NCBI GenBank assembly: GCA_034432995.1
Contig: DAOUAY010000060.1
Span: 1 to 50,341 of the forward strand
Reading direction: 5' to 3'
DNA from: Anaerolineae bacterium
GTDB lineage: Bacteria > Chloroflexota > Anaerolineae > B4-G1 > SLSP01
DNA: 50,341 nucleotides
Positions 20,279-45,574 of this stretch are shown here, one piece after another; the first letter of the stretch is position 1; each line of letters opens with the position of its first letter. Under the pieces are notes generated by a model. The model did not search any database, was not told where the DNA came from, and saw nothing but the letters and a program-made list of their open reading frames with translations. Made by a program: the position numbers and the translations under genes.

Positions 20279-20324
20279 TGTAATTCTCCTTTGCTTAGCA
20301 GACCTTGATTGACAACGCAAAGCC

Positions 20325-20355
20325 AGGAGAACACCGTAAAAACCGGCGTTCTCCT
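20325..20355 (-). other. Intercistronic hairpin (12-bp stem with one mismatch, 7-nt loop)
   Basis: AGGAGAACACCG-TAAAAAC-CGGCGTTCTCCT lies between the stop at 20452 and the start at 20278. No clear U-tract follows on the minus strand. Confidence 0.3.
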
Positions 20356-20451
20356 ACGATTGAGCCGCCTATTTCGGCACATTACCAGTTTACGTCAAAC
20401 CCCAGTTTTACCTCAATAATCAGCGTAAATCCGGACCCATAAGAAGCAATC

Positions 20452-21834: not shown

Positions 21835-21922
21835 TGCATATCCTCCTTACTTGAATAGAGAAGGCGTTTGAAACGGATCGCCCGGCAGGCAGTACCCACC
21901 AAAGCATCCCAGCGCCCCGGCG

Positions 21923-22909: not shown

Positions 22910-22988
22910 TTGAATCCTCCTTCAACTAACGATTAGTTTACTTTCTAACAGTATCTGCTGGTCCTGAACTCAACGGCAGCCGAAGGCG

Positions 22989-25212: not shown

Positions 25213-25332
25213 AGAATATCCTCAAGCTAAACAGGATTTACGCAAATCGGCTACATTCTACCGCCGAGCACGCAGAGAGCGCAGAGAATTTGTAATTTTT
25301 CAGCGGCCTCGGCGGTGAAAAATCCTGATCGA

Positions 25333-25995: not shown

Positions 25996-25997
25996 AG

Positions 25998-26630: not shown

Positions 26631-26633
26631 TGC

Positions 26634-27602: not shown

Positions 27603-27712
27603 GGTTCCCCCTTCGAAAACAAACCGTCAATCTCGCTAATCTACGCGAATTCATAATCGATTAGCCGAAATTCGCGTGGATTCTGCGAATGCAGACATTC
27701 GCGGCTAGATTT

Positions 27713-28972: not shown

Positions 28973-29007
28973 CGGAAAGTTTTCGTTCCTGGATGCGCCA
29001 GCGTCGA

Positions 29008-29853: not shown

Positions 29854-29857
29854 TTGA

Positions 29858-31198
29858 TCAAGACAGATATACGTAGTCGATCAGATTGTACCCGCTGCCC
29901 CACGGGTTGCCGCGCTCATAGGTTCCAAGTTTCACACTATTTGCATATACCAGGTAATCATCTGCGGCATCATCAAGTTGTAATTCAGCATCAAGGAAGT
30001 CGCACATCACGCAGTCTATCGCTACTGGGTCAGTGGCAAATAAAAGACTATCAGGCGCCCGATTGCCAAATGTAACCCACGGCTTTGCTTTACTATAATT
30101 ATTCTCCCAGTTGCCAAACAGCGCATCCCCGATCACCAACACAGTCTTGCCGGCGATATTGGCGTTACGGTAGATATCCACCAGAGGGTTGTAAAACACG
30201 CCGCCGTAGTAGCGTTCCCAAGTATACACCCAATCGTGCAAAGGGTAGCAGTTCTCGATTGAGCCGAAGTGATTCTTGAAAGCCAGTGTCACACCGGTTC
30301 CCCAGTGACGCTTCACAATGGGGATGTCGATGACGTAGGTAGCATTGACCAACACATCCGTAACCTTGATCCCCGACGGGGGCGTCGCAATACCCGGCGG
30401 GTTGCGCCAGACGACGTTCGCCGAGGGATTGGCGCTGGTGTAGCCGGCTTTTTCGTTGCAAAAAGAGTCAAAGTAGCGCACGCCCGGATACAGACAGCCA
30501 GCTTTGAACCGTGTGTTGATGTTTCGCGGTCCCCAGTCAGGATAAGCTTGACCGGTGGCGTCATAGATCCAAATATCACTCGTCTGGAAATTGGGGTAAG
30601 CCGCAAACAACCCCTTGATGAGAGCATTGATCGGGTGAATCAGCGCGTCAAGCTCCAGGTTCGTACTGTTGCAGGTCTGGTAGTTATTATTGAAGTTCAC
30701 CTTGATAGCAATACCTTTACCCGGCGCGTATCCCGGCACCAGCGTCTGCCAGGCCTGGGCCAGTGACGAGGCATTGGTCAGCGCCTTCACACCCCGCTCC
30801 ACCATCGTATCCACCCGCGCCTGATTGACGTAGTTGCCGTAATAGGTGTTTCCATAATTCCACGACGTCACACCGATATCACGGACATGCACGACACGGG
30901 AACCCACCGATGATGAGGTGGGCGTAACCGCAGGCGTGGCAGTCGCTGTTGACGTCTTCGTCAGAGTTGCAGTTGGCGTTGGAGTCTTGGTCAAAGTTGC
31001 AATTGGCGTGTTGGTAGGCGTCGGGATCACAGCGCTGGATTCCCCGCCCATAACTAGCGGCAGATACGCGCGAGGTTCCAGATCATCCGCGGCCCGTCCC
31101 GCAAGCGGCTTACAACCGGTCAACGCGCCTATGCCGGCTTTACCTGCTACCAGGGCGAGTAGTCTCAACAATTCTCGTCTTGACAATTTTTTACGCAT
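29858..31198 (-). CDS. TAT-signal lipoprotein with Thr/Pro-rich linker and DUF362-like domain
   Basis: MRKKLSRRELLRLLALVAGKAGIGALTGC (twin-arginine plus lipobox Cys). Linker TPTNTPIATLTKTPTPTATLTKTSTATATPAVTPTSSS. C-terminal part (AIKVNFNN..., VTLAFKNHFGS) resembles DUF362. Confidence 0.6.
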   Translation of the reverse strand: MRKKLSRRELLRLLALVAGKAGIGALTGCKPLAGRAADDLEPRAYLPLVMGGESSAVIPTPTNTPIATLTKTPTPTATLTKTSTATATPAVTPTSSSVGSRVVHVRDIGVTSWNYGNTYYGNYVNQARVDTMVERGVKALTNASSLAQAWQTLVPGYAPGKGIAIKVNFNNNYQTCNSTNLELDALIHPINALIKGLFAAYPNFQTSDIWIYDATGQAYPDWGPRNINTRFKAGCLYPGVRYFDSFCNEKAGYTSANPSANVVWRNPPGIATPPSGIKVTDVLVNATYVIDIPIVKRHWGTGVTLAFKNHFGSIENCYPLHDWVYTWERYYGGVFYNPLVDIYRNANIAGKTVLVIGDALFGNWENNYSKAKPWVTFGNRAPDSLLFATDPVAIDCVMCDFLDAELQLDDAADDYLVYANSVKLGTYERGNPWGSGYNLIDYVYLS

Positions 31199-31234
31199 TT
31201 GTTCCCTCCAGGATCCCTCATGTCTCGCAAAATA

Positions 31235-32269
31235 CTAAGGAGAAGAGGCTACCGAATAGTCAAACAACGCATCCAGGGAAACCCCTAAGCGCTCCGCCAC
31301 CAACGTGACCAACTCCGACGATTTGGGAATCTCCAACCGGCGCAACGCCTCGTCGCGTTCCATATACCCTTCCCGCACCAATCCCGCCAGTTCCATCGCG
31401 TAGGCATGATAGCCCGTCTGCTGGACGTGGACCTGGTTGGCAAACGCATTGAGCAGGCAATTGGTCGAGTTCGGGTCGGTATCGTCGGGCTTCTTCCAAC
31501 CAAGTTGCTGGATGACCGCCACCGCCTCCTCTTCGCGCCAGTCGAGGAAAACGAGCGGCGAGACGTTGACCGGCATCCGTGACGCCGCCTCGAAGTGGCG
31601 CGCTTCCGGAAAGTAGGCAGCGACCTGCTCGCCCATCCGGGTGAACGGCGAAGCTGCGGCCTCCACCATCGCTTGCAGCATTTTACGAATGGGACGTAAA
31701 AACGCCGACGGCAACGGAATCTGGCCCGGCGACCAACCGTAGACCATCATCGGGATATCCTTTTCCAGGGCGAGTCGCAGGGCCAAACCCTTCGCCAGTC
31801 CCATACAGGTGTTACAAATGCCGCTGGCGCGCTCCAGCGCCTTAGGCGGATACATCCCCGGCGCTACAGATGCCGCGAAAACCCGCTGTAAAAATGGGAA
31901 AGCCGGCCGGATGATGATGTGGTCGATGCTCAAATTGTCTGCCACGGTGCGCATGTTGTCCAGCGCCGCCGGCGAGACGAACCCATTGTCGAACGTAAAG
32001 GCTAACATCCGCAAACCGTACACATGACGCATCAACCAGAGCGTGTACGTGCTGTCCTTACCGCCACTCCAGCTCATCAAGCCATGATAGCCTGACTCGG
32101 CGCGCACCTCAGCCGCAAATTGTTCGAAACGCGCGCGTAACTGGGCTTTCTGTTCGGCACGATGTTCGTGGCTTGGCGCGTGACGGCAGTACTGGCAGAC
32201 GCCTTCCTCATCGAACTGAATGCCTGGAAAAGTCTCCGGCAACACACAGCGAGTACAAAGCTTCATCAA
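31235..32269 (-). CDS. PP-loop N-acetyl sugar amidotransferase-like protein (WbpG/WbuX-like)
   Basis: N-terminal CTRCVLPETFPGIQFDEEGVCQYC zinc-ribbon-like motif and PP-loop SGGKDSTYTL. ATGA overlap with the upstream gene. Confidence 0.65.
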   Translation of the reverse strand: MMKLCTRCVLPETFPGIQFDEEGVCQYCRHAPSHEHRAEQKAQLRARFEQFAAEVRAESGYHGLMSWSGGKDSTYTLWLMRHVYGLRMLAFTFDNGFVSPAALDNMRTVADNLSIDHIIIRPAFPFLQRVFAASVAPGMYPPKALERASGICNTCMGLAKGLALRLALEKDIPMMVYGWSPGQIPLPSAFLRPIRKMLQAMVEAAASPFTRMGEQVAAYFPEARHFEAASRMPVNVSPLVFLDWREEEAVAVIQQLGWKKPDDTDPNSTNCLLNAFANQVHVQQTGYHAYAMELAGLVREGYMERDEALRRLEIPKSSELVTLVAERLGVSLDALFDYSVASSP

Positions 32270-34236
32270 TGTCCCCCCTCTTTTCGACAGATGCGCACCG
32301 GCTCGACCTCAGGTACAGACCGATCGAAGCCCTCGATGAACTGCCGGTATAAAAGTTGCGTGGATAGCGCACCCACCAGGGCCATGTCCTCGAATTCGCT
32401 GAATTCGCCACGCACCTTGTATTTGCGCAGCAAACGCTCGATTGGCTCCGGCGCAAAGACCCCGCTGCTGCGGATACCCTCAGGCGACAGCAAGTCCGTC
32501 ACATAGTCCAACGGTTGCTCGAGGAACGCTTTGTGGATCGGCGCGCGGTAAGGTTGTTTGTAGCGTTCGACGATCTCCGGCGGCAAGAAGCCGGCCGCGC
32601 TTTGTTTGAGAATATGCTTCTCCCGCAGCCCGCGCATCTTGAGGTGCGGCGGAAGCCGTCCGGCAAACTCCACCACCCGATAATCGAGGAAGGGAAACCG
32701 GCCCTCGATAGAATTGGCCGCCATCACCCGGTCGCCCTGTGAAGACAGTAAGTAGGCGGACATAAAGGTCGTGACTTCGAGGAACTGCGCCTGCGCCAAC
32801 GGGCTGCGACCCTGCAAAATCCCGTCGAAGTTCGCCAATGCCTCGTCCACCGGATCGTACGCATTTAGCTGGAAATCTGCGGAGAGGAAATTCCGCATCC
32901 GGGCCGTGCTGTTCCAGCGCATCAGGTGCGAGTAAGCGAGGCGGTCGGTCTCGGTCAAGCCCTTGCCGAAGAACGCCGCCAGGTAAGCATCGCCGCCGCG
33001 CGTCACGTTGGCGATGTAGGGATACAGGCGGCGCAACAGCAATGGGCGCAACGTGGACTCGGGTTCGCGCGCCCAGAAACGCCTGATCTTGTCTTCCTTG
33101 TAGATGTCGTAGCCGCCGAGGAATTCGTCGGACCCCTCGCCCGTGAGCACAACCTTGATGCCGTTATCTCGCACCAGCTTGGAGAGCAGATACATCGGCA
33201 CGGGCGAAGTGCGCAAAATGGGAACCTCGGTGTGCCAGATGACCTCAGGCAGCACCCGGCCAATGTCCGCATCTTCGCAGTATGTTCTGCGGTGATCGGT
33301 CCCCAGAAACGCCGTCGCCAACTCCTGATATTTGCTCTCGTCGTAGGCGGCGTTCGCAAAGCCAATCGAGAAGGTACAGAGCGATTCCGGCGTATGCTCA
33401 CGAATCAGGCCGGCGATGTACGTGGAATCGAGGCCGCCACTCAGATAGCTGCCCACCGTCACGTCAGCGCGGAGCCGCAAGCGCGTGGCGTCAGATAACA
33501 ACGCGCGCAGTTGCTCCGCCGCTTCACCTTCTGATAATTTGGCCTCTTTGCCTTCAGGCGGAAATTCGAGGCTCCAATATTGTGAGACCGTGCGCCCGGC
33601 CTTTGTCACCAGCATATAGTGACCCGGCCGCAGTTCCTCGATGCCCTCGAAGACCGTGCGCGGCGCGAGAGGCGCCCAGAAGGTAAAGGTCTGCGCCAGC
33701 GCATAGGGGTCCAGGCGCGCCGGGATGCGTTCATCCAACAGAATCGCCTTGATCTCTGACCCAAACACCAATCCCTGAGGCAACGGCGCGTAGAAAACAG
33801 GACGGACGCCCAACCGGTCACGCGCCAGGAACAATGTCTCTTGCCTGGTGTCCCAGATCGCAATGGCGAACTGCCCGTTGAAGTGTTGGAGACATCCCGG
33901 ACCGAGTTCCTCGTAGAGATGTAGGATGACCTCGGTATCGGACTGCGTGGAGAAGCGATGACCACGTTGCGCGAGGTCTGCGCGCAACTCAACGTAATTG
34001 AAGATCTCGCCGTTGAATACGATCCACAGCGCCCCGTCCTCATTGCAGATCGGTTGTTGCCCGGTGGTCAGGTCGATGATGCTGAGGCGCGCGCTGCCCA
34101 TCCCCAGTTTGTCGTCCACGTAGACGCCGAACTCGTCGGGGCCGCGGTGGCGGATAGAGGTCAACATCCGGCGCAAAAGGCCCACATCGGGTCGCTGCGC
34201 CCCACTCCAATCAAGACAGCCCACGATACCACACAT
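32266..34236 (-). CDS. Asparagine synthase family glutamine amidotransferase (AsnB-like)
   Basis: MCGIVG Ntn-nucleophile start and PP-loop SGGLDSTYIAG. 656 aa. Confidence 0.85.
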   Translation of the reverse strand: MCGIVGCLDWSGAQRPDVGLLRRMLTSIRHRGPDEFGVYVDDKLGMGSARLSIIDLTTGQQPICNEDGALWIVFNGEIFNYVELRADLAQRGHRFSTQSDTEVILHLYEELGPGCLQHFNGQFAIAIWDTRQETLFLARDRLGVRPVFYAPLPQGLVFGSEIKAILLDERIPARLDPYALAQTFTFWAPLAPRTVFEGIEELRPGHYMLVTKAGRTVSQYWSLEFPPEGKEAKLSEGEAAEQLRALLSDATRLRLRADVTVGSYLSGGLDSTYIAGLIREHTPESLCTFSIGFANAAYDESKYQELATAFLGTDHRRTYCEDADIGRVLPEVIWHTEVPILRTSPVPMYLLSKLVRDNGIKVVLTGEGSDEFLGGYDIYKEDKIRRFWAREPESTLRPLLLRRLYPYIANVTRGGDAYLAAFFGKGLTETDRLAYSHLMRWNSTARMRNFLSADFQLNAYDPVDEALANFDGILQGRSPLAQAQFLEVTTFMSAYLLSSQGDRVMAANSIEGRFPFLDYRVVEFAGRLPPHLKMRGLREKHILKQSAAGFLPPEIVERYKQPYRAPIHKAFLEQPLDYVTDLLSPEGIRSSGVFAPEPIERLLRKYKVRGEFSEFEDMALVGALSTQLLYRQFIEGFDRSVPEVEPVRICRKEGGH

Positions 34237-34242
34237 GGTTAA

Positions 34243-35778
34243 CTACCTCAGATCACGCTTCTGTATTTTGCCCGATTCCGTCCGGGGAAAAGACGCGCGG
34301 AATTCGACCTGCTTCGGCATCGCGAAGTCCTCGAGATACTGCGCGCAATGACGGAGCACATCACGCTCGCTCAGGTTGGCGTCTGGCGCGCAAACCACAA
34401 ACGCCTTGACCGCCTCGCCCAACAGCGCATCCGGCGCACCGATGACCGCCGCTTCCACGACGCCCGGTAGACGGTAGAGCACGCTTTCCACTTCTTTGGG
34501 CGCCACTTTTTCGCCGCGGGTTTTGATGATGTCATCTTTGCGCGCCACAAAGTAGAGGAAGCCTTCGTCATCCATCTTGAAAAGGTCCCCGGTGTAAAAG
34601 AACCGCTCAGCGGGATAACGGCCTGGCCGGTAACGATCCGCCGTGGTCTTTGGGTCTTGCCAATAGCCCTGCATCACGTGCGAGCCGCGCACCACCAACT
34701 CGCCCACCTCGCCCGGCCCCACGCGCCGCCCGGCCTCGTCCTCGATCCACACCTCGGTGCCGGGAATGGCGATCCCCACCGAACCGGGCCGGCGGTCGAG
34801 TTCCTCGGGCGGCAGATAGAGCGTGCGCTTGCACTCCGTCAACCCGTACATCGAATAGAGTTTGGCCCAGGGAAAAGCGTCGCGCAAGCGCTGGACATGT
34901 TCGACGGGCAGAGCCGCCGCTGTATTGGTCAAATAACGCAGCGATGAAAGATCGAACCGGCTCAAATCCATCTGCAGGAGCATGGCAAAGAGCGTGGGCA
35001 CGCCGGGCAGCCCGGTCACGCGCTCTTCTTCGATCCGCTTGAGGGTCGCGGCGGGGTAGACGAAGGAACGCTCCAACACCAGCGTGCCGCCAAACTTGAA
35101 CGTCATCAGCAGTTGGTACAACCCGTAGTCGAAGGAAAGCGGCAGCACGTTGATGACGATGTCATCCGGCACATTTTCCAGATATGTGATGATCGAGGAA
35201 GCAGCAAACGCGACGTTGGCGTGGGTGGACATCACCCCTTTGGGATCGCCGGTGCTGCCAGACGTGTAAATCAGGCAGGCCAGGTCAACGTCGATACACA
35301 GCTTCACTGGAGCGTCCGGTGAAGCTGCGGCTAACAGCGCGGGGAATGACTGCATAGTGCTATAGTGCGCGGCTCCCGCATCGGCGTCCTGCTCACAGAG
35401 CACGCCAAGCATCAAGGAGGGTACAGACGCCATCATCTCGGCAACCACTTCAGCCTGCCGTCCCGGCGCGAAGAGGGCTTTCGCCTGGCAATTGCTCAGG
35501 ACATAGGCTAGTTTATCCGGCTTCGTCGTCGTATTGACCACTACGAAGGTCGCGCCGGCTTTGAGGATGCCAAAAATCGCCAGCACCGCCTCGACGGAGT
35601 TCGGCAACCAGACGGCCACGCGATCCCCACGCTGCGCGCCGGCCGCCAGCAGCCCGTTGGCGACTCGATTGGCGCCCTCGTCAACTTGCCGGTAGGTGAA
35701 CCGCTGACCCGCGCAAATCAAGGCCACCTTATCGGGGGCGCGTTTGGCGCTGTTCTCCAGAAATTCATGCACTAACAT
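34243..35778 (-). CDS. AMP-forming acyl-CoA/acyl-carrier ligase (ANL superfamily)
   Basis: ATG at 35778 (MLVHEFLENSAKRAPDKVAL) overlaps the ACP stop by 7 nt (ATGTTAG). Motifs LIYTSGSTGDPKGV, YTGDLF and GKIQKRDL. Confidence 0.85.
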   Translation of the reverse strand: MLVHEFLENSAKRAPDKVALICAGQRFTYRQVDEGANRVANGLLAAGAQRGDRVAVWLPNSVEAVLAIFGILKAGATFVVVNTTTKPDKLAYVLSNCQAKALFAPGRQAEVVAEMMASVPSLMLGVLCEQDADAGAAHYSTMQSFPALLAAASPDAPVKLCIDVDLACLIYTSGSTGDPKGVMSTHANVAFAASSIITYLENVPDDIVINVLPLSFDYGLYQLLMTFKFGGTLVLERSFVYPAATLKRIEEERVTGLPGVPTLFAMLLQMDLSRFDLSSLRYLTNTAAALPVEHVQRLRDAFPWAKLYSMYGLTECKRTLYLPPEELDRRPGSVGIAIPGTEVWIEDEAGRRVGPGEVGELVVRGSHVMQGYWQDPKTTADRYRPGRYPAERFFYTGDLFKMDDEGFLYFVARKDDIIKTRGEKVAPKEVESVLYRLPGVVEAAVIGAPDALLGEAVKAFVVCAPDANLSERDVLRHCAQYLEDFAMPKQVEFRASFPRTESGKIQKRDLR

Positions 35779-36038
35779 GGGATACCTTGTTTCGCACAAA
35801 TGTAGCGCGTCAGGCGCTCCACAGAGTCGAAGTTATCGGGGACGACCTCCTCATCTTTCACCTCGACATCGAAAGTTTCCTCTACAAATAACAGGAGTTC
35901 TAGGATGCCGGTGGAATCTACAATGCCGTCTTCAAGAAAGGAAGCAGTGTTGTGTAGCTTTCCTTCATCTTTGGTGTAAAGGAAATTCTCCAGGATGTAG
36001 GTGCGAATTTGTGTTTCTATTGATAGTGTTGTAGACAT
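35772..36038 (-). CDS. Acyl/peptidyl carrier protein
   Basis: 88 aa. GIVDSTGILELLLFVEETF carries the phosphopantetheine serine context (DSxG). Markedly AT-richer than flanking genes. Confidence 0.8.
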   Translation of the reverse strand: MSTTLSIETQIRTYILENFLYTKDEGKLHNTASFLEDGIVDSTGILELLLFVEETFDVEVKDEEVVPDNFDSVERLTRYICAKQGIPC

Positions 36039-36077
36039 CGATCTCTCCCGTATACTTTGACTGTCTCGACAATTAAC

Positions 36078-38708
36078 TTAGCGCTTCATAAGCTTCACGA
36101 CCACCATGCCACCGACAAGCAAGAGCGCAATCCCTATCCCCCCAAAGGCTAACATCGGCAAAGTTATCGGCCCGAGCGCCAACACCGGAGCCGACGGCTG
36201 GGCCGGGTATGGATTCACCGCCGGGCGCGGGGTCGGTGTCGGGACTGGTGTTGATTCAGGCATTGGAACCGCGGTTGGCACAGGGGCGAGATTCGGCACG
36301 AACGCCGGCCGGCTCTCAATGCTGCGGCGCGTATGCCAGAGCATAGGCGTCAATACCTTGTCCTGGCGCTTGCTCCCCAGTCCTACCACATCGATGAACC
36401 CTGATTCACCAGCCACCGCTAGGGCAGCCCCGCCGGTTGGTGCATAAACGCCTGCCAACTCGACCGAGTCAAGGCTAGACCACTGCCCCTCAGCATAGAC
36501 AAGATAATGTAACAGGACGGCATCTCCGGTTTTCGTGCCCAGTGCAGTGATATGCAGTCTGCCCGAATTATCCTGTGTCATTACTGCGTATCCCTCAATC
36601 GCTTGCAGACCAGGAATTTGAGAGACATAGTCCCAGGTCAATCCATAATCACTGGAACTGCGATGCTGGACAATGTTACGCGCCAGATCCTGCCACGTGA
36701 CGACAACCTGTCCGGTCAAGGTGGCAGCGACCTGCGGCCAATCGTGAGCGCCATCGGTCAATAGCATGGCGTCCGTCCATGTTTCGCCTTCGTCCGTTGA
36801 GCGCGCATAATACACACCCTGGGGCAACCCGAAGCCTGGCAGCGGCGCGCGAACCCAAACCACGTGAATCACTCCGTTTTCATCTACGGTGATGTCAGGA
36901 TGATCCACGCAGGGCCAGCCTTCTGCCCCAGCATCAAAGAGCTGTACGGTCTCTTGCCACGATTCGCCATTATCGTCGCTGCGGGCGTAATAGATGCCGC
37001 GCCCTTCATTGAACGGCACGGCATAAACCACGTGTAATCGCCCCAGCAAGTCGGCGGTTATCGCGGGGATGCCCCCCACAACAGCCTCATCGGACATTGC
37101 CCGCTGGCTCCAGCCACTGACAGCAAAAGCATCGTTAGGATAAGCCCGACTGTAAAACACTGTCCCTGTTGACCCACCATTCCAGACGGCGTGGAGAAAC
37201 GGCTCGACATAGACCAAGGCTGGCGCTTGAGCCACTCCCTCATCGGCGCCGAGAACCGCCACCGGGCGGCTCCAGGAAGTTTGATCGCGCCGACTATAAT
37301 ACAGCATGGATCCAGCCTGGCCCACAGAACGCGGAGCGCTCCACATCACGTGAACTCGCCCCTCAGCATCTGTCGCGACTGCCGGAAAACCAGGAGTACC
37401 CCCGTCCTCAAAAATAATCGTGGGACCGGCCCATAGTGAGGGTGGCGCGAAGGTCCATTCCAACGCGTCGACCTGCCCTTCCAGCACCCAGATGTCGCCA
37501 TCGCGATCCTGACCGGTCACAACAAGTTTGTTATCCCGTGTTACGCCAGTTCGCAGCGCTTCCAGGTAGGTCGTTGTACCGGTCTGGGGATTCTCGAAGC
37601 TGAAGCTCAAGCGCTTCGACGCCGACCATTGTTCCCCATTCCATGCCGCCATTGACAGATATCCGGTATCTTCTCCACGCATGAAAAGCAGTAGACCTGC
37701 TGGCGTTTGCGCTGTCACAATTTGCACCGGGCACGACGGCAAATCCTCGAAAAACCGCGATGCTGTGGACCAGGTCTTCCCACCATCTTCGGAACGCTGT
37801 TGCTGCAAGACGCATGTGGAGGCTACGCCGCCCTGCTCCCATAGCGCCACAAATCCTGCTGCTTGCCCCTGACTCGACAAGGCGGGCAGCGCGATAAAGC
37901 GCGGATGCAGTCCAACAATGTGCCCGTCTCCCACTTCAGCAGGCTCAGTCCAGGAAAGGCCCCCATCTGTCGAGAAAACATAGAACGCGACTGCCTGTCG
38001 AGGATCATCCCAACCCGCCACGACGTTACCCGACGCATCTGCTGCAAGTGATAAATGGACCGTATCCGCCGTCCACAGCCGGGCATAGAGCGACGTGTAC
38101 AACGCTACCGGTTCTGACCAGGTAACACCGCCATCGGTCGAGCGCAAGTGATAGATGCCCGCCGGAAATGCATCCAATTGCTGCGTCTGGCAGTAGACTA
38201 GATGCAAGACGCCTTGAGCGTCACTCGTCAATTCCCAGGCGATGGCCGATTCTGCCAACACCTCAGGGGTCGTCCATACCGTCGTGCCCAGGCGAAGGCG
38301 GCTATACGACAACGAACGCAGGTTTGTTACCCGGTCAGGTTCTCCCAACCATAAGGCAAGAGCCGTCTCACCTATGCCTACAATCTGGGGCATAGCAGAA
38401 ATGGTTGAAGGAATCAAGAGATCGCTCTCCGCTTCTGGCATTTGGATAGGCGCCGGTGTAGGAGCGGACCAATCATTATCAAGCGCATAGGCCGTTGTCA
38501 GCCCGTCGAAGCGATCCCACCAGAAGACCTGAGTCTGCCCGTCGGGACCTACCACGAGCACAGGAGATTCCGCTGCGCCAGAGCGCGAGAGGTTGATCGG
38601 CTCCGACCACAACGCATCATCCGTTTGGGTAAAACCCGCTTTGTGCCCGCCCAGCGACAACAGGCAGACGATCACCCACGCGACGATCACTCGACTCACG
38701 CGGCTCAA
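36078..38708 (-). CDS. Large BNR/Asp-box multi-propeller protein, signal peptide plus Pro-rich stalk plus C-terminal TM anchor
   Basis: TTG start with GGAGGA 6 nt upstream. Asp-boxes STDGGVTWSEP, STDGGLSWTEP, SEDGGKTWSTA, SDDNGESWQET, STDEGETWTDA and SSDYGLTWDYV. Ends ...PVPTPTPRPAVNPYPAQPSAPVLALGPITLPMLAFGGIGIALLLVGGMVVVKLMKR. Confidence 0.8.
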   Translation of the reverse strand: MSRVSRVIVAWVIVCLLSLGGHKAGFTQTDDALWSEPINLSRSGAAESPVLVVGPDGQTQVFWWDRFDGLTTAYALDNDWSAPTPAPIQMPEAESDLLIPSTISAMPQIVGIGETALALWLGEPDRVTNLRSLSYSRLRLGTTVWTTPEVLAESAIAWELTSDAQGVLHLVYCQTQQLDAFPAGIYHLRSTDGGVTWSEPVALYTSLYARLWTADTVHLSLAADASGNVVAGWDDPRQAVAFYVFSTDGGLSWTEPAEVGDGHIVGLHPRFIALPALSSQGQAAGFVALWEQGGVASTCVLQQQRSEDGGKTWSTASRFFEDLPSCPVQIVTAQTPAGLLLFMRGEDTGYLSMAAWNGEQWSASKRLSFSFENPQTGTTTYLEALRTGVTRDNKLVVTGQDRDGDIWVLEGQVDALEWTFAPPSLWAGPTIIFEDGGTPGFPAVATDAEGRVHVMWSAPRSVGQAGSMLYYSRRDQTSWSRPVAVLGADEGVAQAPALVYVEPFLHAVWNGGSTGTVFYSRAYPNDAFAVSGWSQRAMSDEAVVGGIPAITADLLGRLHVVYAVPFNEGRGIYYARSDDNGESWQETVQLFDAGAEGWPCVDHPDITVDENGVIHVVWVRAPLPGFGLPQGVYYARSTDEGETWTDAMLLTDGAHDWPQVAATLTGQVVVTWQDLARNIVQHRSSSDYGLTWDYVSQIPGLQAIEGYAVMTQDNSGRLHITALGTKTGDAVLLHYLVYAEGQWSSLDSVELAGVYAPTGGAALAVAGESGFIDVVGLGSKRQDKVLTPMLWHTRRSIESRPAFVPNLAPVPTAVPMPESTPVPTPTPRPAVNPYPAQPSAPVLALGPITLPMLAFGGIGIALLLVGGMVVVKLMKR

Positions 38709-39250
38709 ATCAGATCCTCCAAATCCAGTTCCGTCTTGACCAAACGGCTCATGACGTTCAAAAAGACCAACACCCGGCCTTTGGGCGTGATCTGCTGATC
38801 GAATATCGCCTCCAGTCCCTCCAACGGACCGCGAGCGATGCGTATCACTTCGCCTTTCTTGAAGGGCGCGTCAAACACATCCGTAACCTGCATATTCTCA
38901 AGTCGGCGGCGAAGATACATCACAACTTCGTCGGGAACGACAACCGGACGCCCACCGGCAGCAACGATACGCCGTAATCCAGGGGTCCAACACACATCAG
39001 CAAACCGCTGCTCGCCGGGGTCGAAATAGGCAAAGAGATACTGCGGTAGGAAGGGCTTCATACTGCGACGGTCACGCCGGCGCACGACCACAGCGATCTG
39101 GGGAATATAGGTTTCCACCCCGCAGTTACGGAGCACTTCCTGCACGAGGTATTCTTTGTGCGGTTTGGTGTACAAAGCATACCAGTTGCGGTGCGACTGC
39201 GCCTGCTTGCTTTCCCCCTCCGCACAAACTTGTATGTCCGCCTCATCCAT
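38705..39250 (-). CDS. NusG-family specialised paralog (NGN plus KOW), RfaH/LoaP/UpxY-like
   Basis: ATG at 39250 with AAGGAAAGGAG upstream. NGN-like WYALYTKPHKEYLVQEVLRNCGVETYIPQ and KOW-like FKKGEVIRIARGPLEGLEAIFDQ. Located inside a glycan locus, not in a secE-nusG-rplK context. Confidence 0.8.
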   Translation of the reverse strand: MDEADIQVCAEGESKQAQSHRNWYALYTKPHKEYLVQEVLRNCGVETYIPQIAVVVRRRDRRSMKPFLPQYLFAYFDPGEQRFADVCWTPGLRRIVAAGGRPVVVPDEVVMYLRRRLENMQVTDVFDAPFKKGEVIRIARGPLEGLEAIFDQQITPKGRVLVFLNVMSRLVKTELDLEDLI

Positions 39251-39282
39251 AGATGGAAACTCCTTTCCTTCTTGGTGCTTCC

Positions 39283-39309
39283 ATTATACCAGATGGAGAT
39301 AGGCTCCAA
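39283..39309 (-). promoter_or_regulatory. Candidate extended -10 promoter in front of the NusG paralog
   Basis: Minus strand reads TTGGAG (39309-39304), a 15-nt spacer, then TGgTATAAT (39291-39283). It sits about 30 nt upstream of the ATG at 39250 and abuts the stop of the upstream gene. Confidence 0.45.
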
Positions 39310-39311
39310 CT

Positions 39312-41246
39312 TCATGGCTGGGCTGCTCGCTGCTCGGCCTCTTGTGCTTTTTGTAGGGCGTCCTCAGCGCCTTCAGGATGCACTAACGCAATCGTCCGCC
39401 AGGCATAAGCAGCCCGTACAAAATCATCGTTGACCCAGTAGCGATCCCAAGCCTGACCCTCTAAACGCACTTGTGCCCAGGTAAGACCGGCGACTACCTC
39501 GGCAGCCTCTTCGACGCGGCCCAGCGCTACCAGCGTATCACCGCGCAGCAACCGCGTCACAGGGTCGCGGTGCCCCGCTTCCCAGGCAGCCTCAATATGA
39601 TGAAAGGCGGCTTCATACTCACCGCGCGAAAGATGAATACCCGCCAATCGCTGCCGCGCCGTGGCGTTCCGCGCGTCAAGAGCGATGGCGCGCTGGAAGA
39701 GCGCCGTACTCGCTGTCAAATCCTCCGCTTGCCGCACGGAGTCTACGATGTAGCCGGGGGTCTTCCCGAACTCGTAACGCGCCAACTCCACCCGCGCCTG
39801 GCGCATCGCGCCCAAGCTGGCATAGCCTTGCGCTACCAGAGGGCGCCAGAACCAAACGCCCAAGGCCAGCAGCAGACCCAGAGCGCCTATGGCCCACTGT
39901 CTTCTTTGAGGGTGAGGCGCTGCCGGCGGCGCACCCGCCGCCGCTACCGCCCACTCCACAAGCGCAAACGGCACCAAGAAGAGCAACAACCACTGGCTTC
40001 CGTAGAGCACATCCTCCACCTGCCCGTGGATCACAACCGCCGCGAGCGAAACCAGCCCTGCCTCGATGATCCAAGCCTGCTGCCAATCCACACGCCGCAA
40101 CGCGCGCATCGCCTGCCAGATACAAAGGATCACCAAACCCAGGAACAGCAGCAGTCCCGCTATGCCTTGCTCGACCAGCAAATCCACGAAGACATCGTGG
40201 CTATTGTGGATATACCCCACGTGGATGAGCAAGGTGTAGATCGAGAAATTCAACTGGAACGTGCCCAATCCCGATCCCGTGAGTACGTAATCCCAAGCCA
40301 GCGGCAACGAGTCTTTCAACAGTGACAACCGGCCTGTTATCGCGCCCGCACCGGGCAGATCGTAAGCCAGCACGGCGAAAAGCCCAATCACCACCAGCGC
40401 CCCGCCGAGAACAAGCGCTCCGGCGATCCACTGCAAGCGCGCTCCATCTGTAAAGCGACGACCCAGCCAACGCCACAGCCCCCACAGCGAGAAGCTCACC
40501 AACGTGGCAAACCAGGCGCCCCGCGTCGTCGTCACCAGCAGACCAAACAGGACGATCCCTGCCGCCGCCACCCACAGAAAGGGAAGTGTGCGCCGCAGCC
40601 AGCCGGGCAAACACAAAGACGTTTCCTTGTGAGCCAACCGCGCCAACGGCACGTAGAAAGGCAACGTCATCGCCAGCAGACCGCCGATGATGTTGGGATT
40701 GGTCGCCTCTGCCGCCGCCCTCGGCAGCAGCGCCGAGATCGACTCCCCCAACGCTACCAGCGCGGGCACTTTGAGCGGATGGGCGCTCCAGTCGTTGGTC
40801 AGGAAGAAATAGACCGTGAGCGCCACGCCGAACAGCCCCCCGATGGTCAACACACCATACAGATGCTTGAGATCCGGCTGATTGACCAGCGCGTAGTAAA
40901 GGCCCCAGGCGCCCACCACGAGCCAGAACTTGGCCCACGCCGGCCCAGGCGCGTAAGCCGTCTGCGTTCCTATCAGCGCCGAGAGCAAAAAAAGCAACAG
41001 CAGTATATCAACCAGCTTGATGTCGCTGGGCGTAAACCGCCGCAATAAGCCGGTGCGCCACCGGTAAAGCCCCCACATCAGCACCAGCAAGAGCGCTGCC
41101 CAAGAGCCAGGCCAACTACTCAGGTGCGACACCGCGCCGCCTTGCGTATACCAAAGCGCCCCGGCAAACAGCGCGCATCCCAATTCAATGTAGGGCGATA
41201 GAGCGCGCAGTTTCGATGGTGAGAGTGTAGAAGCCGGTTCGCTCAC
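39312..41246 (-). CDS. O-antigen ligase (Wzy_C) family membrane protein fused to C-terminal TPR repeats
   Basis: GTG start. About 12 hydrophobic segments. GYIHNSHDVFVDLLVEQGIAGLLLFLGL (Wzy_C-like). C-terminal ~170 aa with TPR-like helices (ALDARNATARQRLAGIHLSRGEYEAAFHHIEAAWEAG...). Confidence 0.75.
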   Translation of the reverse strand: MSEPASTLSPSKLRALSPYIELGCALFAGALWYTQGGAVSHLSSWPGSWAALLLVLMWGLYRWRTGLLRRFTPSDIKLVDILLLLFLLSALIGTQTAYAPGPAWAKFWLVVGAWGLYYALVNQPDLKHLYGVLTIGGLFGVALTVYFFLTNDWSAHPLKVPALVALGESISALLPRAAAEATNPNIIGGLLAMTLPFYVPLARLAHKETSLCLPGWLRRTLPFLWVAAAGIVLFGLLVTTTRGAWFATLVSFSLWGLWRWLGRRFTDGARLQWIAGALVLGGALVVIGLFAVLAYDLPGAGAITGRLSLLKDSLPLAWDYVLTGSGLGTFQLNFSIYTLLIHVGYIHNSHDVFVDLLVEQGIAGLLLFLGLVILCIWQAMRALRRVDWQQAWIIEAGLVSLAAVVIHGQVEDVLYGSQWLLLFLVPFALVEWAVAAAGAPPAAPHPQRRQWAIGALGLLLALGVWFWRPLVAQGYASLGAMRQARVELARYEFGKTPGYIVDSVRQAEDLTASTALFQRAIALDARNATARQRLAGIHLSRGEYEAAFHHIEAAWEAGHRDPVTRLLRGDTLVALGRVEEAAEVVAGLTWAQVRLEGQAWDRYWVNDDFVRAAYAWRTIALVHPEGAEDALQKAQEAEQRAAQP

Positions 41247-41258
41247 ACGCCTTCTCGC

Positions 41259-42914
41259 TTACTTCCAACCCAATGTTTCCAGCCCGATACGCACTGCTGA
41301 GGTGATCATACTCGGATCGCCGAGCAACAGCTTGAGATAGGTCAGCATTGGCTTGGGACGGAAGGCCCACTCGCGGAAGGCGCGCTTGGCCCACCGTTCC
41401 AGGTCTTCGGCCTTGAGGTTGGGATAATCCAACACGGTGGAACGATCCATGTCCACGTCTTCCCAGCGGGTGCCGGGACGAAACCAGCCGTTCTCCACCA
41501 CCTCGAAAAAGAAGGGCGTGCCGGGATGCGGCGCCGCGATGTGAAAAAGGATCAAATCGAGCGGCAGGCGCTTGGCAAAATCGATCGATTTGCGGATGCT
41601 GGCCTCGGTCTCGCCGGGCAAGCCAATGATGAAGTAGCCCCAGTTCATGATGCCGGCCTCTTTGGCCCAGCCCAGCGCCTTCTCCACCTTCTCCAGCGTG
41701 ATGCCCTTGTTCATCCGCTTGAGCATCTCCGGCTCGCCGGACTCGATCCCCCAGGAGATCATCCAGCACCCGGCGCGGCGCATCTGTTGCAGCAATTCCA
41801 GATCGACGAAATCCACCCGGCTGTTGCACGTCCAGCGAACCGGCAATTTCCGTTCGAGGATACCTTCGCAGATGCCCATCACGTGCTCGCGGTTGACGGT
41901 GAACAGGTCGGTGTACATGTGAATCTTGCGCACACCCAGATTCACCAACACTTCGATCTCATCGACCACGTTCTCCGGCGTGCGAAACCGCACCGACGCG
42001 CCGTAAGAGACGTGCTTGATGCAAAAACGGCATCCGGCCGGACATCCTCGGCTGGGAACGGAGAAGGCATACGGCCCGCCGACCAGCGGCGCACGATAGG
42101 CTTTGAGGGGCAATAAATCGTGGCGCGGCAATGGCAGGTCATCGAGATTGGCAATGTAGGGGCGCGGTGGATTGATGACGACCTCAGAGCCATTGCGCCA
42201 AACCAGGCCCTTGATCCTGGTGAGCGGCGCATCGCCATCCGCAAAATGGGCGGCGTGCCAGAGAGGCTGCCAGCCGGGATCGTGCGTAGTAAATAAACGC
42301 TTCAGCCGCAAAGCGAAATCCGGTGCGGCGCTGGGCCACCAAACATCGTCTCCGCCACCGCCGTCGCCCGCCGATGCTGCGCCGTTCCTCATCCGTTCGG
42401 ACACATCGACGAGTTCGCGCAAGGTCAGTTCCGGCTCACCGAGCAGCACGTAATCCAGGGCCGGGTAAGTCTTCATCGTCGAGGCCGGCATCGGCGTCAC
42501 GTGGGTGCCAAAGGCCATCGTGACTGCGCCGCGCGCTTTTGCCAGGAAAGCGCCGTACATGTCATTTTGCAACGTAGGCGCCGTCACCTGAGTGATGTAG
42601 TAACGCGGTCGTTTCTCATCCAGCAACCGCTCGAATTCGGCCCACGACATCCGTTCAGGCATCGCATCGATCACTTCGACGCGGAAATCGGGGAAGAGCG
42701 CCGCCATCTGCGCCAGATCCACCTGCGGCCAGATCATGCCTTCGCGCGAGCGCCGCCCTACCCGGTGTTGGCTGCGAATCCATATCCCGCCATCGGGCGC
42801 GGGCGGATTGACGAGCAGAATATCGACGGCGCTGGGCGGACGTTTTGCCAGTTCCTCGTAGAGCAGCGCGTCGGTATTCGGAAAGTTGGGGGCTACAATT
42901 CTTTGTTGAACCAC
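41259..42914 (-). CDS. B12-binding domain radical SAM protein (class B)
   Basis: GTG start. N-terminal Rossmann-like DILLVNPPAPDG... region and radical SAM cluster motif SRGCPAGCRFCIKHV (CxxxCxxC). 551 aa. Confidence 0.8.
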   Translation of the reverse strand: MVQQRIVAPNFPNTDALLYEELAKRPPSAVDILLVNPPAPDGGIWIRSQHRVGRRSREGMIWPQVDLAQMAALFPDFRVEVIDAMPERMSWAEFERLLDEKRPRYYITQVTAPTLQNDMYGAFLAKARGAVTMAFGTHVTPMPASTMKTYPALDYVLLGEPELTLRELVDVSERMRNGAASAGDGGGGDDVWWPSAAPDFALRLKRLFTTHDPGWQPLWHAAHFADGDAPLTRIKGLVWRNGSEVVINPPRPYIANLDDLPLPRHDLLPLKAYRAPLVGGPYAFSVPSRGCPAGCRFCIKHVSYGASVRFRTPENVVDEIEVLVNLGVRKIHMYTDLFTVNREHVMGICEGILERKLPVRWTCNSRVDFVDLELLQQMRRAGCWMISWGIESGEPEMLKRMNKGITLEKVEKALGWAKEAGIMNWGYFIIGLPGETEASIRKSIDFAKRLPLDLILFHIAAPHPGTPFFFEVVENGWFRPGTRWEDVDMDRSTVLDYPNLKAEDLERWAKRAFREWAFRPKPMLTYLKLLLGDPSMITSAVRIGLETLGWK

Positions 42915-42962: not shown

Positions 42963-44252
42963 TCAGCTAATATAATCGCGGTCGAGGTCGGCGCCGATGA
43001 GGATCTCGCGCTGGCTCAGTTCGTCCAGGACGCGCATGATCACCCAGAAGATCACCAATTGCACGCCCATCAACACGAGCATCGCGCCCGCCGTCAGATA
43101 GAGCCACAATCGCGTGATGTCCCAGCCACTCAAGCCCAAAATCAGGCTAAACACGCCGATGACGAAGCCACCTGACATAGCAGCAAGCCCCATCCAGCCA
43201 AAAGAGCGATCCAGGGGCGGCTCGAAGATGGGCTTGCCGAACAACCCTTTCTGCACGACGTCCTTGTTGAACAGGGCCACCAGATAATTGAAGGTCGCGC
43301 CGAGAGCGAATAGCGTGAAGCCCACCAGGCCGAAAATCATTGCCGCGAAAACCCCGGTCACACCCCAGGGTCCAAGTTGGTTCACACCGCTCAACCGCAA
43401 GATCATCAAGCCCAGGGCAATCAGTACTCCAGCACAGAACAACCCGAAGCCCACACCACCGAGCGGTCGGGCAGGGTTGTACGTCAGCGCCGTCCAGATG
43501 ATGGTTTGCAGGAATCGCATGCCATCGCGCACCACACTAAGCTTGGAACGGCCGGCCCGCTCCTCGTAAGGCATCGGGATTTCCGCAAACTTCAACCCTT
43601 CGTGCACCGCGCGGGTGCTCATCACCGGCGTAAAGTTCAAACCATCGGGGAGCGGATAAAGCCGGAGCAGCGTCTCACGGCGGAAGACGCGCATGCCGCT
43701 GGCCGGATCGACGACCGGCCTGCCGCTGAGCGCCGTGACGAGATTGGCCCAGATGAAGTTACCCACTTTGCGCACGAACGGCATACCGCTGGACGCGCCG
43801 GAGCGCCGCGAACCGACAACCACGTCGGCGCCCTCTTTGATCGCCTGGCAGAGTTCGGGAAATGACTCCGGCGGATAGGTGCCGTCGGCGTCGAGAAAGC
43901 CGAGCAGGTCGCCGCAGGCCGCGCAGAAGCCGGTTTTGAGCGCCGCGCCATAACCGCGGTTTGGGCTGTGCTGGAGCAAGCGCACGCTCGGATAGCCTCG
44001 CACAATTTCGGCCGTGCGATCTTTAGAACCATCGTCGACCACCAGCAGTTCCAGTTGCAGCCCGATAGCCGCCAGCGCCGGTTCTACCGCCAGCACACGC
44101 TCTACGATATCCGCGATGCCGTCTTCCTCGTTGTAGGCCGGGATGACCACCGAAAGCATCCGCGGAATCCCTTCCTGCTCCAACAAACAGGCTTCTTCAG
44201 TGTTGATGCTCTTGTCCGTGCTCTTCACGACTGTTTCCACCGCTGCTACCAT
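42963..44252 (-). CDS. GT2 polyprenyl-phosphate glycosyltransferase-like (DPM1/GtrB-type) with four C-terminal TM segments
   Basis: LSVVIPAYNEEDGIADIVERV, LLVVDDGSKDRT and FLDADGTYPPE, followed by hydrophobic segments. An alternative ATG at 44159 has AGGAAGG upstream, so the start is uncertain. Confidence 0.8.
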   Translation of the reverse strand: MVAAVETVVKSTDKSINTEEACLLEQEGIPRMLSVVIPAYNEEDGIADIVERVLAVEPALAAIGLQLELLVVDDGSKDRTAEIVRGYPSVRLLQHSPNRGYGAALKTGFCAACGDLLGFLDADGTYPPESFPELCQAIKEGADVVVGSRRSGASSGMPFVRKVGNFIWANLVTALSGRPVVDPASGMRVFRRETLLRLYPLPDGLNFTPVMSTRAVHEGLKFAEIPMPYEERAGRSKLSVVRDGMRFLQTIIWTALTYNPARPLGGVGFGLFCAGVLIALGLMILRLSGVNQLGPWGVTGVFAAMIFGLVGFTLFALGATFNYLVALFNKDVVQKGLFGKPIFEPPLDRSFGWMGLAAMSGGFVIGVFSLILGLSGWDITRLWLYLTAGAMLVLMGVQLVIFWVIMRVLDELSQREILIGADLDRDYIS

Positions 44253-44307: not shown

Positions 44308-44347
44308 CCGCGCTCCGCCCTTCCGACAAGCTGTGCTGGTCAGAAGG
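44308..44347 (-). promoter_or_regulatory. Conserved leader element, copy A: 9-bp hairpin followed by GCGGAGCGCGG (ops/JUMPStart-like)
   Basis: Minus-strand RNA reads CCUUCUGAC-N11-GUCGGAAGG-GCGGAGCGCGG. A 24-nt core is identical to 45295-45318. It lies 56 nt upstream of the ATG at 44252. Confidence 0.5.
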
Positions 44348-44506
44348 ATCAGTGGTATTCAACTTGAGGGGCTGCGCAGTTAAACCACAAGCCTCTACTT
44401 ATTCCAGGGTACACCCAATCGACGAAAAAAAAGTTAGCATTACATCGCAATTATGTGGCAACTTCGTAAGTGATCACGTGGACATCATCCCTACTCGATC
44501 GATCCC

Positions 44507-45262
44507 TCAATCCACAGACAGATAGACCGGGCCACGCTGCGCATCTGTCGAACCATCGATCTCGCGTAGAACCCGGGCCGGCACGCCGCCGACAACGGTG
44601 TGGGCAGCCACGTCTTTGGTCACTACAGCGCCGGCCGCAATGACCGCGCCCTGCCCCACCCGCACTCCATCCGTGATCACCGCCCCGGAGCCAATCCACA
44701 CGTCATCCTCGATCACGATCCCCTCCGCCGTGATGCCCTGTTCCACAAAAGATCGCTGCGGATCGTCGAAAACGTGATTGACGGCAATGATTTGCACCAT
44801 CGGAGAAGTATAGACCCGATCCCCGATCGTCACGCCGCCCTGTCCGCGAATCACAGTATACTCGCCGACGAGACTATCCCGCCCGATATGGATACCGGCA
44901 TGGGGCAAATCGCGGAAGTTGTAGACGTGGAGCACTGCCCCATGCATAACCAGCGTCCCTGCACCAATCGCCACCCCTTGCGGGCAGGCGTGGATGTACA
45001 CCCCTTGATCGAGATATGCGCCACGCCCCAACCGCAGGTGATTGGCAAAACACACCCTCACGCCAGGCTCGATAGCCGCCAATCCCTCCATCTTCAACAT
45101 CAAACGGTAGAAGACAGCACGCAATCCTATACCCAGAGGTGTGGGAATCCAGCCAAACAGAACCTGCAGGAGTTGCTCGAGCAGGTAACGCAGAGGCGTG
45201 TCAGCCTGGCGGTGTAAGTAAAGGCTCAGACCAGCCGTAGGGTGACGTTGATTTGAATCCAT
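44507..45262 (-). CDS. Hexapeptide-repeat acetyltransferase (WcaF-like), first gene of the minus-strand cluster
   Basis: Hexapeptide region [15 protein letters not shown]...[18 protein letters not shown]...[32 protein letters not shown]. Start chosen at ATG 45262 because the longer ORF (GTG 45397, ATG 45340) would translate through the conserved leader element. The start is uncertain. Confidence 0.7.
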
Positions 45263-45294
45263 CGAACTCAACGCGTAAGATTCCCCTCTCTGTA

Positions 45295-45334
45295 CCGCGC
45301 TCCGCCCTTCCGACAAGCAACGCCAGTCAGAAAG
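45295..45334 (-). promoter_or_regulatory. Conserved leader element, copy B: 9-bp hairpin followed by GCGGAGCGCGG (ops/JUMPStart-like)
   Basis: Minus-strand RNA reads CUUUCUGAC-N11-GUCGGAAGG-GCGGAGCGCGG. It lies 33 nt upstream of ATG 45262. Differences from copy A keep pairing as G-U wobbles only in the sense orientation. Confidence 0.5.
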
Positions 45335-45545: not shown

Positions 45546-45574
45546 ATTATAACCAAAATGGTTAGAGTTTGCAA
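45546..45574 (-). promoter_or_regulatory. Candidate sigma70-type promoter for the minus-strand cluster (TTGCAA-N17-TATAAT)
   Basis: Minus strand reads TTGCAA (45574-45569), a 17-nt spacer, then TATAAT (45551-45546), within the AT-rich divergent region. It predicts a leader of more than 140 nt. Confidence 0.5.

Follow-up and report, generated by a model that had tools for sequence, protein, structure and literature searches.

INTRODUCTION

The ops element of Escherichia coli, GGCGGTAGCGTG, is a consensus pause site, in which the TG at positions 11 and 12 causes pausing (PMC5995543). On its non-template strand, a C3:G8 pair presents the loop G4-A7, where G5 and T6 are read specifically, and T6 is flipped into a pocket of the NusG paralog RfaH made of H20, R23, Q24 and R73 (Zuber et al. 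2018, PMC5995543). The consensus of the JUMPStart RNA family (Rfam RF01707) has a 5-bp hairpin (cUGGu...gCCAg) and then directly GGGCGGUAGCGUG, 75 nt before rfbB. A second NusG paralog, LoaP, is reported to bind a leader RNA hairpin. To our knowledge, the recruiting signal is unknown for most specialised NusG paralogs outside Enterobacteria. Here, we analyse a 50,341-nt stretch of DNA from an Anaerolineae bacterium of the phylum Chloroflexota (contig DAOUAY010000060.1), called the window, and within it a signal of ~22 bases, often accompanied on its 5′ side by a small RNA hairpin, that occurs in two copies at the head of a 45-kb cluster of sugar-polymer genes.

We propose, with a rough probability of 0.55, that this element is the Chloroflexota counterpart of ops/JUMPStart: a pause and loading site for an RfaH-like NusG paralog, read on the non-template strand and aided by a hairpin, a function to which computational comparison points. 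The ops/JUMPStart class of signal is already known; the new parts are the sequence class, the phylum, and a T6-less core that goes with a remodelled protein patch. Searches of a literature library returned no description of the motif, nor of any signal for a NusG paralog in Chloroflexota.

RESULTS

Two copies of the element in the window

On the minus strand, both copies (45295-45334 and 44308-44347) consist of a 9-bp hairpin and then GGCGGAGCGCGG, according to the layout C(C/U)UUCUGAC-N11-GUCGGAAGG-GCGGAGCGCGG. Copy 1 (45295..45334) lies in the leader of the first cluster gene and matches the covariance model with 65.5 bits. Its 5′ arm CUUUCUGAC (45326-45334), its loop UGGCGUUGCUU with an inner GGC/GCU mini-stem (45315-45325) and its 3′ arm GUCGGAAGG (45306-45314) are followed by the ops-like core GGCGGAGC (45299-45306) and the tail GCGG (45295-45298), with a pause predicted after C45297. 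Copy 2 (44308..44347; 68.7 bits) occupies the 255-nt gap between an acetyltransferase gene and a family-2 glycosyltransferase (GT2) gene, and is composed of the 5′ arm CCUUCUGAC (44339-44347), the loop (44328-44338), the same 3′ arm (44319-44327), the same core (44312-44319) and the tail (44308-44311). The box ends 32 nt before ATG 45262 in copy 1 and 55 nt before ATG 44252 in copy 2. These are the start codons of the first and second genes in a minus-strand series that spans ~45 kb, so that both copies stand, as ops does, in the sense orientation at the head of a co-directional glycan cluster, as judged from its presumed direction of transcription.

The original prediction had claimed two copies with an identical 24-nt core and a 9-bp hairpin on the minus strand, a fold favoured only in the direction of transcription, and a duplication that is not due to chance, and each of these claims is borne out. 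A repeat search of the window returned a 42-nt direct repeat (44304-44345 and 45291-45332, 86% identity), within which the 24-nt core is identical at 44308-44331 and 45295-45318. The minus-strand 20-mer GTCGGAAGGGCGGAGCGCGG has exactly two matches in the window, even when up to three mismatches are allowed, while shuffled sequences lead one to expect 0.02. A position weight matrix scan of the window gave both copies 38.8 bits and the next best site 2.4. The z scores of the hairpin fold are -3.6 and -2.7 on the sense strand, compared to +0.5 and -0.5 on the antisense strand. The duplicated box is, moreover, an element conserved across the phylum.

A family of boxes across the Chloroflexota

An exact scan for the 20-mer in a 596-Gb collection, with one genome per species, found it in 49 loci, ~44 of them from Chloroflexota and nearly all of these in intergenic leaders. 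The exact matches outside the phylum are in coding regions of unrelated phyla, in about the number expected by chance. By record name, the Chloroflexota boxes cover at least five classes (Anaerolineae, 'Chloroflexia', Thermoflexia, Ardenticatenia and Ca. Limnocylindria). The base 5′ of the 20-mer, which the search did not force, is T in 48/48, and the base before that is mostly A. The flanks on either side are otherwise not conserved, with conservation stopping at position +19, and searches for a second conserved motif up- or downstream of the box, and for a sigma-70 promoter at a fixed distance upstream of it, found none.

The genes that follow the box are mainly concerned with glycans (in ~43 of ~62 family members). 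The first downstream gene is gmd (GDP-mannose dehydratase) in 14 loci, GT2 in seven and a hexapeptide acetyltransferase in another seven, followed by UDP-glucose dehydrogenase (three), Wzz (three), Wzy (two), UDP-GlcNAc 2-epimerase (two), LCP (two) and others, and the box typically ends 12-60 nt before it. Several metagenome-assembled genomes (MAGs) carry at least two boxes at separate loci; the box therefore marks a regulon.

Across independently found instances, conservation is highest in GGCGGAGC, which is essentially invariant, then in the flanking U-GUCGGAAGG, and then in R-Y-G. After GGCGGAGC-R, a pyrimidine follows in 22 and a G in 16 of 23 independent instances derived from paralog loci. 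Box variants include GGCGGAGCGUGC, GGCGGAGCACGG and GGCGGAGCCUGC, together with the subclass GGCGGAUGCU.

An RfaH-like NusG paralog accompanies the box

The presumed trans-acting partner is an RfaH-like NusG paralog of 181 amino acids (38705..39250, minus strand), encoded in the same operon, 5-6 kb downstream of both boxes. The tie between element and paralog, proposed in the original prediction for this one cluster, appears as gene adjacency from both sides. From the motif side, a tblastn search with the window paralog against loci carrying the exact box located, in 12 loci, a same-strand paralog gene whose end precedes the box by 70-350 nt. From the paralog side, metagenomes were scanned with a paralog alignment and 80 loci were fetched, ~70 of which extend at least 150 nt beyond the gene. 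Among these ~70, the box lies 75-370 nt downstream of the gene, on the same strand, in 28; three further loci have a diverged box, G(C/U)GCCGGUCC-GGCGGAGCCUGC, for a total of 28-31. The position weight matrix matches in paralog-derived loci score 16-39 bits, compared to a 99.99% background quantile of 1.5. A covariance model built on seven window-type seeds (R1) gave 11 matches at E<0.01, and a model with diverged orthologues added (R2) gave 24 at E<=0.1, all of them on the paralog's strand; R1 was too narrow and was discarded as a model of the family. The loci of paralogs that keep the enterobacterial T-R/K-G-V motif have no box, and the box variants (GGAUGC, GCCGGUCC) follow paralog clades.

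The protein has a Pfam NusG match (2.1e-17), and its best-scoring family is RfaH, at 106.1 bits with a cut-off of 144.5, and also at 83 with a cut-off of 124 (TIGR01955 / NF006534). Its scores for UpxY (NF033644; 83 bits, cut-off 100), LoaP (NF033641; 44.4 bits, cut-off 125) and NusG (40 bits) also lie below the cut-offs. E. coli RfaH is the best match among solved structures (2.4e-13), and JGI annotates the close homologues, found in Anaerolineae MAGs, as RfaH. Of the residues that contact ops, the window protein keeps only K10, with V, N, C and P in place of H20, R23, Q24 and R73. In the ops-contact loop, E. coli RfaH has A71-T72-R73-G74, whereas the Chloroflexota paralogs (the window and L004-L135, where L-numbers label the compared loci) have W-(M/L/T)-P-(G/H) at 71-74. 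From the loss of both the base T6 and its pocket, we infer a read-out that is changed but related.

In an AlphaFold2 model, the N-terminal domain has a predicted local distance difference test score (pLDDT) of 85-96, and the C-terminal domain (130-181), with its mixed strands and helices, one of 50-67; the Foldseek matches of the paralog are driven by the N-terminal domain. According to a 2026 preprint, RfaH homologues whose predicted C-terminal domains are mixed or NusG-like tend to adjoin or lie inside long operons of the lipopolysaccharide type, and may act in cis (PMC13015549). The gene layout in the window matches that cis pattern, which settles nothing.

The upstream hairpin

RNAfold statistics were replaced by an anchored-arm test and by covariation among orthologues. 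The anchored-arm test, which is free of selection, asks for a 5-nt arm complementary to GUCGG, located 3-30 nt upstream, and finds one in 44 of 71 instances (38 of 64 clusters), compared to 34% of shuffles and reversed flanks (p = 4e-5). The complementary arms extend by at least three more pairs in 32% versus 10% (p = 3e-4), and position -3 covaries with its partner (63-68% paired versus 40% when permuted). In the exact-box set, 83% of cells pair and shuffles reach as much in 91/500, but this set is uninformative on covariation because its 3′ arm never varies.

Covariation becomes visible in diverged orthologues, where compensated stems are found with the same 44-nt spacing as in the window: GUCAGAG/CUCUGAC (L132), GUCCA/UGGAC (L131) and UGCCAGA/UCUGGCA (L134). 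In a gapless alignment of nine orthologues, 86.9% of cells pair, compared to 77.8 +/- 2.2 in shuffles (0/500); in five pairs both partners have changed (4/500), and slid controls reach 34-56%. The 24 paralog-derived R2 matches, in an alignment fitted to the model, pair in 81% versus 74% of cells (0/500) and contain six two-sided changes. A MAFFT alignment of 41 variable-loop instances was rejected for structural use, its sequences having been right-justified. G-U pairs are frequent in the hairpin, which favours a stem formed at the level of RNA. Together, these sequence comparisons indicate that the hairpin is real and selected in many lineages, including that of the window.

The compensatory changes for which the original prediction proposed to look are thus present, in orthologous clusters and among the R2 matches. 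Its picture of an element centred on the hairpin stands in part: the hairpin covaries in orthologous clusters, but conservation is strongest in the single-stranded box (A/U)UGUCGGAAGGGCGGAGC-R-Y-G.

Gene order is kept in the orthologous clusters L050, L131 and L132 (acetyltransferase, GT2, radical-SAM, Wzy, paralog, BNR), and in L134 and L135 the paralog is relocated to the cluster front. All orthologous clusters compared carry the box, as a conserved leader element should, at differing points: before the acetyltransferase gene (window copy 1, L044 and L132), before the GT2 gene (window copy 2, L050 and L038) or just after the paralog gene (L131, L134 and L135). The duplication in the window is one of several box configurations.

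Comparison with ops, JUMPStart and other leader elements

Removing T6 from E. coli ops GGCGGTAGCGTG gives the invariant core GGCGGAGC-R-Y-G, and the variant GGCGGAGCGUG, found in L079 and L116, equals ops minus T6 across 11/11 aligned positions. The resemblance to ops is consequently stronger than the partial one first described. The full 12-nt ops consensus is absent: T6 is missing from all main-class instances, and one subclass reads GGCGGAUGC. The two elements share GGCGG-AGCG-Y-G and the flanks of the consensus pause, which are present as a sequence match in GGGCGGAGC-R-Y-G (GG at -11/-10, Y-G at -1/+1). A GC...GC mini-stem around a GGNA-type loop could form in either: the Chloroflexota GC-GGA-GC can form the same stem with a 3-nt loop (C3:G7), and the GGAUGC subclass can form GC...GC with a 4-nt loop. 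In L077, GGGTGGAACG has a double change that keeps the mini-stem pair as T:A, a single case. Both elements are placed in the sense direction within the leaders of long operons for envelope polysaccharides, and each goes with a NusG paralog of the RfaH family.

The differences from ops lie in both partners. The Chloroflexota box lacks T6, the flipped-out base read by E. coli RfaH (one subclass has GGAUGC instead), and its protein lacks the conserved H20/R23/R73 pocket. The box has a further 10 invariant nt, AUGUCGGAAG, upstream. Finally, ops belongs to Proteobacteria and the box to Chloroflexota, in which the gene for the paralog usually lies within the target operon or next to it.

The likeness to JUMPStart is one of layout. 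As a positive control, the 39-bp JUMPStart upstream of E. coli rfbB scores 60 bits with RF01707 and has the layout seen here: a hairpin with a 5-bp core, 0-3 nt, and GGGCGG(U)AGCG(U/C)G, tens of nt upstream of the first gene in clusters of the O-antigen or capsule type. In the window, the 9-bp stem (5-bp core) ends 3 nt before GGCGGAGC. The stems differ (YYGRC/GUCGG in Chloroflexota, CUGGU/GCCAG in JUMPStart), the Chloroflexota 3′ arm is itself almost invariant, its spacer is 3 nt (AAG) and its loop spans 3 to ~30 nt. The window element does not reach the RF01707 gathering score (35 bits), and Rfam scans gave no match to it at gathering thresholds across the whole window or at E<=10 in 44200-45600. 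The element appears to work like JUMPStart/ops, but it is not a member of the Rfam family.

Two other systems are related more by arrangement. LoaP, in Bacillus and relatives, is likewise a specialised NusG paralog encoded beside the operon that it controls, with a leader hairpin, but the Chloroflexota paralog is RfaH-like, its leaders have no consistent terminators and an ops-like single-stranded box dominates conservation. The UpxY determinants in the 5′ untranslated regions of Bacteroides capsule loci also combine a required leader signal with a paralog gene linked in cis to a polysaccharide operon. Each UpxY is specific to its own locus, whereas the Chloroflexota box is identical at several loci per genome, as in an RfaH-like regulon.

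DISCUSSION

A proposed pause and loading site

In the mechanism that we propose, transcription would start upstream and run through the element. The 3′ half GGGCGGAGC-R-Y|G matches the consensus elemental pause (G-11 G-10 ... Y-1 G+1), and polymerase would pause there, at the predicted C/U-G point of GGCGGAGCG(C/U)|G. The paused polymerase would expose GGCGGAGC on the non-template strand, where GC-GGA-GC could form a mini-hairpin of two pairs with a 3-nt loop lacking T6. Meanwhile, the upstream hairpin would form in the nascent RNA, with its core stem ending ~13 nt behind the RNA 3′ end at the predicted pause, which is where a pause-stabilising hairpin would sit. The N-terminal domain of the paralog would read the exposed box, bind the clamp and exclude NusG and Rho, and the loaded paralog would keep the polymerase processive (antitermination) across the long glycan operon. 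With its two copies, the cluster would then offer two sites for loading, the first at the start of the operon and the second downstream of its first gene, where an internal promoter may serve it.

Several observations weigh against this proposal. A transcription bubble exposes ~10-11 nt of the non-template strand, fewer than the ~22 nt over which the box is conserved, so that the upstream half of the box, UGUCGGAAGG, has to be explained in another way. No box lies near ~55% of paralog loci, shared descent confounds the co-variation between box variants and paralog clades, and a few boxes precede non-glycan genes, for a single-stranded-DNA-binding protein and an ABC-F ATPase. The hairpin is not universal, with ~40% of boxes lacking a recognisable 5′ arm; the exact-box set, in its R1-fitted alignment, gives no covariation signal with an invariant 3′ arm, and RNAfold arm-pairing counts and minimum free energies do not separate real flanks from shuffled or swapped ones. 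The ops-like mini-stem C3:G7 has one compensatory example only, that of L077. On the protein side, the paralog scores below every curated NCBIfam family cut-off, and its C-terminal domain is modelled with low confidence as mixed alpha/beta, so that autoinhibition of the RfaH type may or may not occur.

The box is a precisely defined candidate signal of 22 nt, phylum-wide, with natural variants and clades of partner proteins. If the proposal holds, it would permit the glycan and envelope regulons of the mostly uncultured Chloroflexota to be predicted, and it would offer a natural experiment in how the RfaH:ops read-out changes when the flipped T is lost and the pocket remodelled. A further question on which it touches is whether ops/JUMPStart has one origin or several. 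We suggest tentatively, and at somewhat worse than even odds, that the Chloroflexota box and proteobacterial JUMPStart/ops are true homologues, or that the regulator and its site were transferred together with glycan clusters long ago. In that case, the loading of an RfaH-type factor by a hairpin plus GGCGG(N)AGCGYG would be much more ancient, or more mobile, than is allowed by the current view, in which RfaH is a duplication born in Proteobacteria, and the loss of T6 together with the W-x-P pocket would record co-evolution of a protein with non-template DNA. The element itself would be bipartite, with one read-out from the hairpin in nascent RNA and another from the non-template DNA. A 2020 survey placed ~95% of RfaH proteins in Proteobacteria (PMC7593976).

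Alternative explanations

The main rival to an ops-like loading site is an element that acts purely as RNA, in the manner of LoaP, where the paralog or a partner binds the nascent hairpin and the single-stranded GGGCGGAGC tail. We consider it unlikely, though well ahead of the other alternatives. A hairpin that covaries and contains many G-U pairs is expected to form in RNA, and the order of paralog, leader element and operon resembles loaP-dfn. A bubble cannot expose the whole length of the conserved box, and the extra 10 invariant nt upstream of the ops-like core, which bubble exposure alone does not explain, keep this reading alive. However, the paralog is nearer to RfaH (106 bits) than to LoaP (44 bits, cut-off 125), the core matches both ops and the consensus pause, and the box sequence stays invariant in the ~40% of instances where no 5′ arm is recognisable. 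Of 28 long leaders, only 6 have strong hairpins capable of termination after the box.

Less probable by a clear step is a double-stranded DNA site, either the operator of a transcription factor or part of a promoter for an alternative sigma factor, that merely shares a regulon with the paralog gene. Such a site would account for boxes that end only ~12-60 nt before many start codons and for the absence of a consistent sigma-70-type promoter upstream of most instances. Yet the box is asymmetric and strictly orientation-specific, and its conservation stops at +19, so that no conserved -10-like element stands at promoter spacing. The gene that recurs nearby is the NusG paralog and not a regulator or sigma factor, a covarying hairpin at variable distance favours a transcribed element, and in the window's lineage a promoter-like TATAAT site lies upstream of the element.

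A coding role is very improbable, whether as the start of a leader peptide (NUG UCG GAA GGG CGG AGC GCG...) or, for copy 1, as an N-terminal extension of the acetyltransferase (open reading frame 44507-45397). The 5′ edge of the box (45314-45316 and 44327-44329 in the window) does read A/U/G-UG in 66 of 71 instances, with C depleted, and the copy 1 box is in frame with the acetyltransferase. But the NUG frame is no more open than the other two (medians of 23, 23 and 17 codons), and relative to the downstream start it stops before it in 31 cases, runs past it out of frame in 15, fuses in frame in 10 and overlaps in 10. Variation within the box has no third-position pattern, the same box precedes unrelated genes, and the divergent N-termini of acetyltransferase homologues begin after it. 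With mixed frames and no codon pattern, the concern raised in the original prediction, that copy 1 is translated within a longer acetyltransferase, is not supported.

That the duplication and the likeness to ops are chance in GC-rich DNA, or a selfish repeat, is least credible of all: the ~4-6 of 49 exact matches that are doubtful or lie in coding regions of unrelated phyla do fit the ~1 or more expected in 1.2e12 positions, but ~44 matches fall in one phylum, in leaders of the same gene class and beside the same regulator family, and window shuffles predict 0.02 copies.

The surrounding gene cluster

The first gene after copy 1 encodes a hexapeptide-repeat acetyltransferase (44507..45262, minus strand), with an alternative TTG start at 45271, and the first gene after copy 2 the GT2 glycosyltransferase (42963..44252, minus strand). 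The remainder of the co-directional glycan cluster (36..42914, minus strand), presumed to depend on the element and syntenic in L050, L131 and L132, encodes a B12/radical-SAM enzyme, a Wzy/TPR protein, the NusG paralog, a BNR protein, an AMP-binding enzyme, asparagine synthase, an ABC ATPase, a DegT aminotransferase, and GT2 and family-4 (GT4) glycosyltransferases. About 210 nt upstream of copy 1 is a promoter-like TTGCAA-17-TATAAT (45546..45574, minus strand), identified as a consensus match only; TTGC(A/T)A-N17-TATAAT is likewise found upstream of the element in L038 and L044. There is no terminator-like site in 44100-45700 of the window.

A gene for a GAF-domain histidine kinase (45580-47376, plus strand) diverges from the cluster head, and the same divergent kinase is present in L044 (1576-3243), which suggests separate control of operon initiation. 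Within the Wzy/TPR gene, ~700 nt upstream of the paralog gene, the minus strand carries GGCGGTAGC (39943-39951, context GGGCGGTAGCGGCGG), which has 10/12 bases of canonical E. coli ops. As a second ops-like site it was rejected: the 10-mer is absent from the orthologous L050, and the match is probably due to chance. In L134 (15601-17810) and L135 (6340-8549), a block of AbiEii, HicA and nucleotidyltransferase genes, of the toxin-antitoxin or defence type, is inserted within the glycan operon between the radical-SAM and Wzy genes.

Further box loci

Perfect boxes occur 14-24 nt upstream of non-glycan genes in L007 (2635), L033 (1327) and L008 (6700); these genes encode the single-stranded-DNA-binding protein (in two MAGs) and the ABC-F-type ATPase, and the regulon may exceed glycan genes. 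An Anaerolineales MAG has a complete 22-nt box within an rmlD-like coding sequence (L032, 3131-3152), which may be coincidental or may serve for loading from within a gene. Directly 3′ of the box, short tandem repeats or long palindromes are present at L020 (~800-880), L045 (~1100-1190), L018 (2670-2710), L090 (1120-1200) and L077 (1120-1160), among them ACGTTGGA repeats, AATTTCGAA repeats and GTAATTGGGTAATTGCCAATTACCCAATTAC; the feature is not general. On the one contig that holds both L013 and L047, four successive boxes (L013 1922, 2481 and 3974; L047 1445) follow a paralog gene and alternate with small genes that resemble toxin-antitoxin or PIN-type cassettes. Two of these boxes have the same 19 nt downstream, and the cassettes were therefore apparently duplicated along with the box.

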